DNA of 64,000 nt from the NCBI RefSeq assembly GCF_054482595.1, contig NZ_CM137008.1. One strand, 5' to 3'. The position numbers and the translations under genes were made by a program. Shown here piece after piece: positions 48,936-49,439 of this stretch. Positions within the stretch are counted from its first letter, which is position 1. The number at the start of each line of letters is the position of its first letter. Below the pieces are notes generated by a model. It did no database searches, was not told the DNA's origin, and saw only the letters and a program-made list of their open reading frames with translations.

Positions 48936-49439
48936 ATGAATATATCATATGTGAATAGCAACAAAACGACATCTTTACCTGTAGAGCTAGATACACTAAA
49001 TAACAAAGATATCTCTTATGCCAAAGATTTCTCTTATGCCAAAGATCTCTTTTTATATATAGAAACACAGTTAAAAATTGCAAAAGATTTTTGTAGACCT
49101 GGAGAAGAAGCATCAAGTTCTATTGCAAGTACAGTTTTTCACGCATTTATTGATTTAGTTAACAAAATCAGGGGTAAGAAAGATTTTATGTATATTTGCA
49201 CGCTTTGCTGTTTTGCCGAGGAGGTTAAAGGTGATTATTCTCATTACAGGACCTTTTTATTTGATATTGGTAATCAATATAAGGTTAAACTTACACAAAG
49301 CGGAAAAAAAGAGTTCTCTTTAACTTTAGAATTTAACGATACTATAATTGAATCTCAGAAAGTCACAGGCAATAAGGCAAAGCATATTCTTGAGGATATA
49401 GAAAAATTCTATCGTAACAAACCCGGCACTTATTATTAA
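48936..49439 (+). CDS. Hypothetical protein, AT-rich (possible longer form of K-12 yjbS)
   Basis: 167 aa from ATG 48936 (GGAG SD); no recognisable motif; strongly AT-rich codon usage. Confidence 0.5.
   Translation: MNISYVNSNKTTSLPVELDTLNNKDISYAKDFSYAKDLFLYIETQLKIAKDFCRPGEEASSSIASTVFHAFIDLVNKIRGKKDFMYICTLCCFAEEVKGDYSHYRTFLFDIGNQYKVKLTQSGKKEFSLTLEFNDTIIESQKVTGNKAKHILEDIEKFYRNKPGTYY

Follow-up and report, generated by a model that had tools for sequence, protein, structure and literature searches.

The DNA between the core genes aphA and tyrB in the window (the whole stretch of 64,000 nt that was analyzed, from contig NZ_CM137008.1) carries a continuous reading frame of 167 codons plus stop on the + strand (48936..49439), and this frame is the full-length form of yjbS, a gene represented in K-12 by a product of only 67 aa. 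We consider it probable that yjbS is an orphan gene of Escherichia coli and Shigella, intact here at its ancestral length, which lies on a horizontally acquired islet silenced by H-NS and is dispensable, weakly selected, and repeatedly lost. That the gene is silenced, dispensable, and lost again and again is proposed because published reports on K-12, the distribution of the gene, and the weak constraint on its sequence point in this direction. The yjbS locus is already known, and the finding is not new in kind; its biological weight is modest, and its value lies in annotation and in the reading of K-12 data sets.

The yjbS Reading Frame and Its Start Site

The ORF listing gives a frame of 180 aa at 48897..49439 (+), within which an internal ATG at 48936 yields the 167-aa form. 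Inspection of the sequence revealed a Shine–Dalgarno sequence, AAGGAG (48922..48927, +), and in the segment cccgAAGGAGatgatgacATG its GGAG is located 8 nt 5' of the 48936 ATG, which is the correct spacing; a Shine–Dalgarno sequence was also looked for upstream of the ATG at 48897, and none was found there. The preliminary description had reported an ORF of 167–180 aa with a good Shine–Dalgarno sequence, and we recovered both lengths, with AAGGAG preceding 48936 only. The possible 13-codon N-terminal extension that gives the 180-aa form (48897..48935, +) is variable at codon 8, which encodes P, R, H, or L among alleles by way of second-position changes, and both the PGAP and the K-12 annotations begin at the ATG equivalent to 48936. 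Because the upstream ATG has no Shine–Dalgarno sequence, codon 8 is variable, and the annotated starts coincide at the internal ATG, we take 48936 as the start, and the extension is probably not translated. Judged from its sequence, the stretch from 48936 to 49439 is genuinely protein coding and has a ribosome-binding site, and we regard its coding origin as certain.

Comparison with K-12 yjbS

In MG1655 the gene order is tyrB, yjbS (b4621, 67 aa, opposite strand), aphA; the product is entered as “uncharacterized protein YjbS” of 67 aa (YP_001165333.1/WP_001321562.1), and the K-12 derivative HST04 has the same spacer sequence as MG1655. The preliminary description had given the K-12 gene at this position as a much shorter yjbS and had proposed that the frame in the window may be a full-length version of a gene that is decayed in K-12. 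Alignment of the aphA–tyrB region with K-12 supports both statements in that the length is not identical, the product having 167 aa here versus 67 aa in the K-12 reference, and K-12 carries two 1-bp deletions. The window region is 100% identical to that of strain XH990 and 94.7% identical to K-12-type strains over 1,141 bp.

K-12 yjbS has its locus, strand, start codon, and Shine–Dalgarno region in common with the window ORF, the DNA identity is ∼95% over the entire islet, and the first 46 codons are collinear less one repeat unit. However, K-12 lacks one in-frame 18-bp repeat unit (6 codons), the G at window position 49093 (49093..49093, +) is deleted according to the base-by-base alignment, and a second base pair is lost from the A7 run at 49304–49310 (A7 to A6). 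Deletion of the G is the truncating lesion, in that it shifts the frame and leads to a stop after 67 aa; the K-12 product matches the 167-aa protein over only about 46 residues at the N-terminus, is then out of frame, and owes its length to the frameshift. In K-12, the other two frames still encode the rest of the ancestral sequence, with zero nonsense substitutions. On the basis of this alignment, K-12 yjbS (b4621) is a recently decayed pseudogene remnant of the same 167-aa gene and not its reference form, and it should be treated as such. We take the full length to be the ancestral state because intact alleles of 161–173 aa are found in many strains, including those with the most divergent allele groups.

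Intact and Truncated Alleles

To describe the state of the gene, we used a sample of 39 evenly spaced islet carriers, 24 of which were translated; the other rows, 13 of the K-12 type and 2 of the O157 type, were classed by annotation (“protein YjbS” for the K-12 type) and match length and not by translation. The ORF is intact (161–173 aa) in 19 of the 39 sampled carriers and truncated in 20 (14 of the K-12 type with 67 aa, three of the O157:H7 type with 119 aa, and one each with 128, 126, and 115 aa), and these proportions describe the sampled database, which is skewed to clinical and laboratory strains. Behind the 20 truncated copies are at least five independent frameshifting events, three of which fall in or beside an A7 homopolymer run (49304..49310, +) that the allele alignments mark as a frameshift hotspot. 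K-12 and strain EC5 (128 aa) have A6 in place of A7, a 10-bp deletion takes out part of the run in O157:H7 (119 aa), and a 2-bp deletion lies just 3' of it in CUVET24-RF2 (126 aa). Alleles also differ at an in-frame 18-bp tandem repeat (49004..49050, +; 2.6 copies by Tandem Repeats Finder) that encodes a hexapeptide of the S-Y-A-K-D-F type; K-12, O157, and the 161-aa alleles have one copy of the hexapeptide, the window has two, and alleles L006 and L007 have three. Features that could belong to phase variation are two A7-to-A6 alleles, two nearby deletions, and the one to three copies of the 18-bp repeat, the A7 run itself being short.

The Islet and the aphA–tyrB Site

The ORF is part of an AT-rich islet of ∼1 kb with 31% GC (48657..49656, strand not applicable) that fills the aphA–tyrB island site. 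Homology with islet-free strains stops near 48656 and resumes near 49657, and in 200-bp windows the GC content is 0.29–0.33 at about 48600–49600 versus 0.46–0.58 on either side. Over their full lengths, the GC content is 0.314 for the islet and 0.308 for the ORF versus 0.493 for aphA and 0.524 for tyrB, in agreement with the AT-rich pocket between GC-normal core genes noted in the preliminary description. The left flank is aphA (acid phosphatase; 47805..48518, −) and the right flank is tyrB (aromatic amino acid transaminase; 49663..50856, −), both placed by the annotation of the 100% identical strain XH990, and yjbS is encoded on the strand opposite to both.

Several elements were identified in the islet in addition to yjbS. 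A 16-bp segment 5' of the ORF (48839..48854, strand not applicable) with TTTATAAA at both ends is extra in the window allele and missing from 17 of 20 other distinct alleles. The AT-rich noncoding tail of the islet (49440..49629) yielded no significant family match and no Rfam match, and an Rfam search for an RNA element across the islet gave zero matches at E ≤ 1. The tail holds a 54-aa ORF (49458–49622), which we rejected as a second gene: 1-bp indels at 49481, 49529, 49545, and 49577 segregate in it among strains. Between the converging ORF and tyrB lies a GC-rich hairpin with a 10-bp stem (49630..49653), with a predicted folding energy of −19.2 kcal/mol (z-score −4.1) for the + strand and −20.0 kcal/mol (z-score −3.5) for the − strand. 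It is kept in all islet alleles with variation confined to the loop, no clear U-tract follows it, and it may plausibly act as a bidirectional terminator. The promoter scan was uninformative, with 6 sigma-70-like sites versus 5.7 expected, and a TTGACC/TACAAT pair at 48875–48898 was discarded as a promoter on account of its spacer of just 12 nt.

Of the 5,426 complete E. coli genomes, 4,328 (∼80%) carry the yjbS islet with a coverage of ≥80%, always between aphA and tyrB and at 92–96% identity, and 10 of 10 other loci recovered by way of the protein are syntenic. The islet or yjbS is also present in Shigella, K-12, and O157:H7. yjbS is absent from 19% of the complete E. coli genomes: the spacer is occupied instead by a 13.5-kb island in 1,047 of the 5,426, including the type strain ATCC 11775, and consists of unrelated sequence of ∼200 bp in 19. 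The genes of the 13.5-kb island encode a sensor kinase, a sigma-54 regulator, proteins similar to 2-oxoglutarate dehydrogenase/succinyl-CoA synthetase, and a transporter. All three fillings have a common boundary on the aphA side near 48656, and the yjbS islet passes into tyrB-side sequence near 49657. An origin of the islet-free strains by simple deletion was rejected, their spacers being unrelated sequence (the 200-bp filler or the 13.5-kb Kgu island). From these comparisons, the aphA–tyrB spacer is best described as a multi-allelic island site that holds the yjbS islet, the Kgu island, or a short spacer.

The KguS/KguR island for 2-oxoglutarate utilization of uropathogenic E. coli (c5032–c5041) has been described as “inserted between tyrB and aphA” (Cai et al. 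2013, PMC3694859). It shares with the yjbS islet the insertion site and the boundary on the aphA side, and the two are mutually exclusive; however, the Kgu island is 13.5 kb long, its nine annotated genes have known functions, it contributes to fitness in the urinary tract (PMC3694859), and it is unrelated to yjbS in sequence.

No integrase gene or tRNA site was found as a signature of mobility in the islet, which consists of a single ORF and gave nothing in Rfam and no matches to phages or genuine plasmids. A phage or plasmid origin was rejected: searches of phage sequences gave zero matches, and the eight “plasmid” matches are mislabeled chromosomes, large chromosomal fragments, and a likely contaminant. 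Several of the matching PLSDB records are chromosomes of 4.8–4.9 Mb or chromosomal pieces of 0.4–1 Mb, and the 17-kb “Klebsiella oxytoca plasmid” NZ_CP069917.1 carries a K-12-type yjbS and is probably the result of contamination or misassembly.

IS1 insertions in yjbS occur in natural strains, and two more IS1 hits in the gene arose during a macrophage-evolution experiment (PMC4999529); such insertions seem to be drawn to the AT-rich islet. The wider region shows other variation. IS elements occur in or beside it in several strains (IS150 in aphA of strain EC5; IS1, IS5, ISVsa5, and IS1A nearby), tyrB is annotated as frameshifted in the bovine strain UTAK-4, and tyrB is followed by genes for an AAA-family ATPase and pnuC in some strains and directly by alr in window-type strains.

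Homologs, Predicted Structure, and Possible Roles of YjbS

The 167-aa YjbS has a computed mass of 19.3 kDa and a pI of 7.6, and it has no hydrophobic stretch of sufficient length for a transmembrane segment or signal peptide; it is predicted to be a soluble protein of ∼19 kDa. Public databases list the exact protein under the name “hypothetical protein” (e.g., BBW72721.1), and it is found on 473 contigs. Protein homology searches, which the preliminary description had suggested, were run and recovered relatives only in Escherichia/Shigella and no family or fold. Searches of Pfam, NCBIfam, and PADLOC with YjbS gave zero matches, and PHROGs gave just E = 0.07 and 0.05. Among 5.8 billion proteins searched, relatives were found in Escherichia/Shigella alone, and a profile of 6 alleles searched against 1.84 billion cluster representatives recovered only fragments of yjbS itself. 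A scan of one genome per species, which was pattern based and not exhaustive for other Escherichia, gave one match, in the assembly “Flavobacterium paronense CECT 8460” (NZ_JAUFQN010000013.1), which was rejected as a homolog: the 9.5-kb contig is 99.6% identical to E. coli uvrA-yjbR-yjbQ-aphA-yjbS-tyrB. This contig has many frameshifts and is almost certainly a K-12-like E. coli contaminant from long reads. A 106-aa metagenomic protein with Pfam PF06109 is 90% identical to YjbS over 18% of the query and may be chimeric or a miscalled ORF. Taking these searches together, yjbS is, among the databases covered, an orphan protein-coding gene limited to E. coli/Shigella.

The AlphaFold2 model of YjbS has moderate confidence (pLDDT 63, pTM 0.62; the five models span 38 to 63). 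In the model, residues 1–36, which include the hexapeptide repeat, are disordered and are followed by three helices, a five-stranded beta-meander (95–144), and a C-terminal helix, with pLDDT 80–90 over roughly residues 110–150. Foldseek searches with this model gave a best E of 0.099 against the PDB and a best E of 0.0076 with TM < 0.31 against BFVD, and no fold assignment was accepted; a sequence-profile search of the PDB gave just E = 0.7 to SipA.

Our best guess is that YjbS is a conditionally useful cytoplasmic accessory protein and not a housekeeping protein. The Foldseek list for the PDB (best E 0.099) is headed by the CdiI entries 5ffp and 6cp9, and YjbS resembles orphan CdiI-type immunity proteins (PDB 5ffp, 6cp9) in being small, soluble, AT-rich in its coding DNA, rapidly diverging, and restricted to a lineage. 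No toxin gene (cdiA-CT, rhs-CT, or similar) was found just 5' of yjbS, whose neighbors are aphA and tyrB, and no known immunity family has significant sequence or fold similarity to YjbS. The N-terminus, disordered in the model, is rich in Ser, Thr, and Asn, a composition that AT-rich coding DNA gives in any case, and we found neither homology to type III effectors nor an adjacent chaperone gene.

Selection on yjbS and Alternative Explanations

Pairwise comparison of 10 intact alleles gave dS values of up to 0.175; dN/dS is about 0.4–0.6 in diverged pairs and noisy in close pairs, ranging from 0.2 to 1.7. The 15 distinct intact DNA alleles have 23 synonymous versus 44 nonsynonymous segregating changes. 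When the same mutation types are placed randomly, the neutral expectation for synonymous changes is 16.8 ± 3.2 versus the 23 observed (P = 0.04), with the reservation that the P values for selection, near 0.03–0.04, are marginal and not mutually independent. Nonsense substitutions number 0–1 versus 3.6 expected, frameshifting indels number 5 in the ORF versus 11 in an equal length of noncoding islet DNA, and polymorphic sites by codon position are 11/21/29, skewed to the third. The density of substitutions is equal in the ORF (82/504 bp) and the noncoding islet (82/496 bp), and pi is similar. These data suggest that the coding sequence is maintained by purifying selection that is weak at best and possibly absent.

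The chief competitor to the explanation that we favor, which we judge unlikely but worth serious consideration, is that yjbS is dead everywhere: it would have been coding in the donor or early after acquisition and would now be neutral in all E. coli, with intact copies being those not yet disabled. Such a history is consistent with the equal substitution density and similar pi of the ORF and the flanking noncoding DNA, with dN/dS of 0.8–1.7 in several close pairs, and with the five independent frameshifts that leave about half of the carriers truncated, and silencing by H-NS would shield the gene from selection (PMC3661553). However, neutrality throughout does not fit well with the synonymous excess (P = 0.04), the third-position skew of polymorphic sites (11/21/29), the shortage of nonsense substitutions (0–1 vs. 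3.6 expected), and the smaller number of frameshifting indels in the ORF than in an equal noncoding length (5 vs. 11), and each of the two deepest allele groups has an intact ORF.

That the ORF arose by chance in AT-rich intergenic DNA and was never a gene is, in our judgment, very improbable. Stop codons are frequent in DNA of 31% GC, and the open stretch of 186 codons was not equaled when the islet was shuffled 2,000 times with dinucleotides preserved (mean 69, SD 15, maximum 152); no shuffle reached even the 167 codons of the ORF. The ORF also has a properly spaced Shine–Dalgarno sequence and a GC content by codon position in the order GC1 > GC2 > GC3 (0.36/0.30/0.26), its frame is open over 15 distinct alleles save for lineage-specific frameshifts, and the model shows a compact alpha/beta domain with pLDDT 80–90 at residues 110–150. 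The observations that would favor chance are that homologs outside E. coli and a family assignment are lacking and that the full ORF has no RefSeq annotation, but the RefSeq gap follows from the choice of the K-12 stump as reference. We give next to no credence to a recent, strain-specific acquisition, which the preliminary description had offered as its second possibility and which we abandon: the exact allele is found at ≥99% identity in just 19 records and the composition is foreign, but the islet is present at one fixed site in 4,328 of 5,426 complete E. coli genomes (∼80%) with 92–96% identity, and also in Shigella, K-12, and O157:H7. It is improbable as well that YjbS is a functional, conditionally expressed protein of a new family (orphan immunity/antitoxin-like or a type III secreted substrate) that is turned on and off by slippage at A7 and modulated by the 18-bp repeat; this reading rests on noise-level fold matches and on properties generic to AT-rich orphan genes. 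More doubtful still is the elaborated version in which an E. coli-specific, H-NS-silenced YjbS with a fold absent from PDB and BFVD would be used only in particular niches, for example as a stand-alone immunity protein, an anti-phage factor, or a secreted substrate of a cryptic type III system, with A7 and the hexapeptide repeat serving as population-level switches. If YjbS were such a niche-used functional protein, K-12, O157:H7, and other lineages would be natural knockouts.

H-NS and the Proposed History of the Islet

The K-12 spacer between tyrB and yjbS has been reported as promoter island 4266514_318, which overlaps a predicted genomic island and binds H-NS (Panyukov and Ozoline 2013, PMC3661553). 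The 78 “promoter islands” of K-12 bind RNA polymerase and H-NS, give rise to few full-length transcripts, and map to DNA predicted to be foreign (PMC3661553). When 1-kb segments of the K-12 genome are ranked by GC deviation, the yjbS region falls within the top 20 (PMC2575891). The yjbS islet shares with silenced AT-rich islets and promoter islands its low GC content, presence/absence polymorphism, and lineage restriction (PMC3661553); however, the promoter island is intergenic in K-12, whereas most of the corresponding DNA in the window belongs to the 3' part of an intact ORF. In K-12, the promoter island measures 318 bp and lies in a tyrB–yjbS spacer of 501 bp, the counterpart of about 49158–49660 in the window; 278 bp of this spacer are decayed ORF, giving an overlap of at least 95 bp. 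In older K-12 coordinates, the island presumably borders directly on the yjbS stop and takes in almost all of the decayed portion. Part of the published “promoter island” of K-12 is, on this comparison, decayed coding sequence. The H-NS motif TCGATAAATT has one 9-of-10 match in the islet, at 49330–49339 within the ORF, which is not above chance.

In the history that we propose, an AT-rich patch of ∼1 kb carrying yjbS would have been acquired horizontally at the fixed aphA–tyrB island site. Horizontal acquisition is consistent with a GC content far below that of the flanks (0.31 vs. 0.49 and 0.52), with presence/absence polymorphism in E. coli, and with the finding of no homolog in other species in our searches. 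H-NS would bind the islet and largely silence it like other AT-rich foreign DNA, as suggested by ChIP in K-12 on a broken copy of the gene. Because it would be dispensable and under weak purifying selection, yjbS may have been lost again and again; the 1,047 genomes with a different island at the site and the IS insertions in yjbS (PMC4999529 and the natural occurrence) are in line with dispensability. Lineages have broken the gene independently, K-12 by two 1-bp deletions, O157:H7 by a 10-bp deletion, and others by events at or near A7, and about half of the carriers retain an intact copy.

Annotation and Essentiality Calls

The XH990 copy of the ORF (1917–2420 of the XH990 locus, equal to 48936–49439 of the window) is annotated by RefSeq/PGAP as a “frameshifted” pseudogene (48936–49158) plus an 83-aa CDS (49188–49439), two features that share one frame and are not separated by a stop. 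The pseudogene label is rejected for the window ORF, the reading frame being continuous from 48936 to 49439. Other intact yjbS alleles in RefSeq are likewise labeled “frameshifted” or “incomplete,” and the 83-aa in-frame fragment has entries of its own (WP_122986486.1 and WP_000275035.1). Intact copies are mislabeled by RefSeq/PGAP because the 67-aa K-12 stump serves as the evidence protein, and with the stump as reference the real YjbS is therefore missing from many E. coli proteomes.

K-12 yjbS received few transposon insertions and was scored as essential by TraDIS only (PMC5821084), and its “essential” status was repeated in a 2026 recoding study (PMC13287592). DNA bound by H-NS has been found to resist transposon insertion, which leads to false essential calls (PMC5061874). 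We doubt the TraDIS call because the gene is already disrupted in K-12, is missing from 19% of genomes, and withstands IS insertions; the call is probably an artefact, for which occlusion of transposition by H-NS is the likelier cause.
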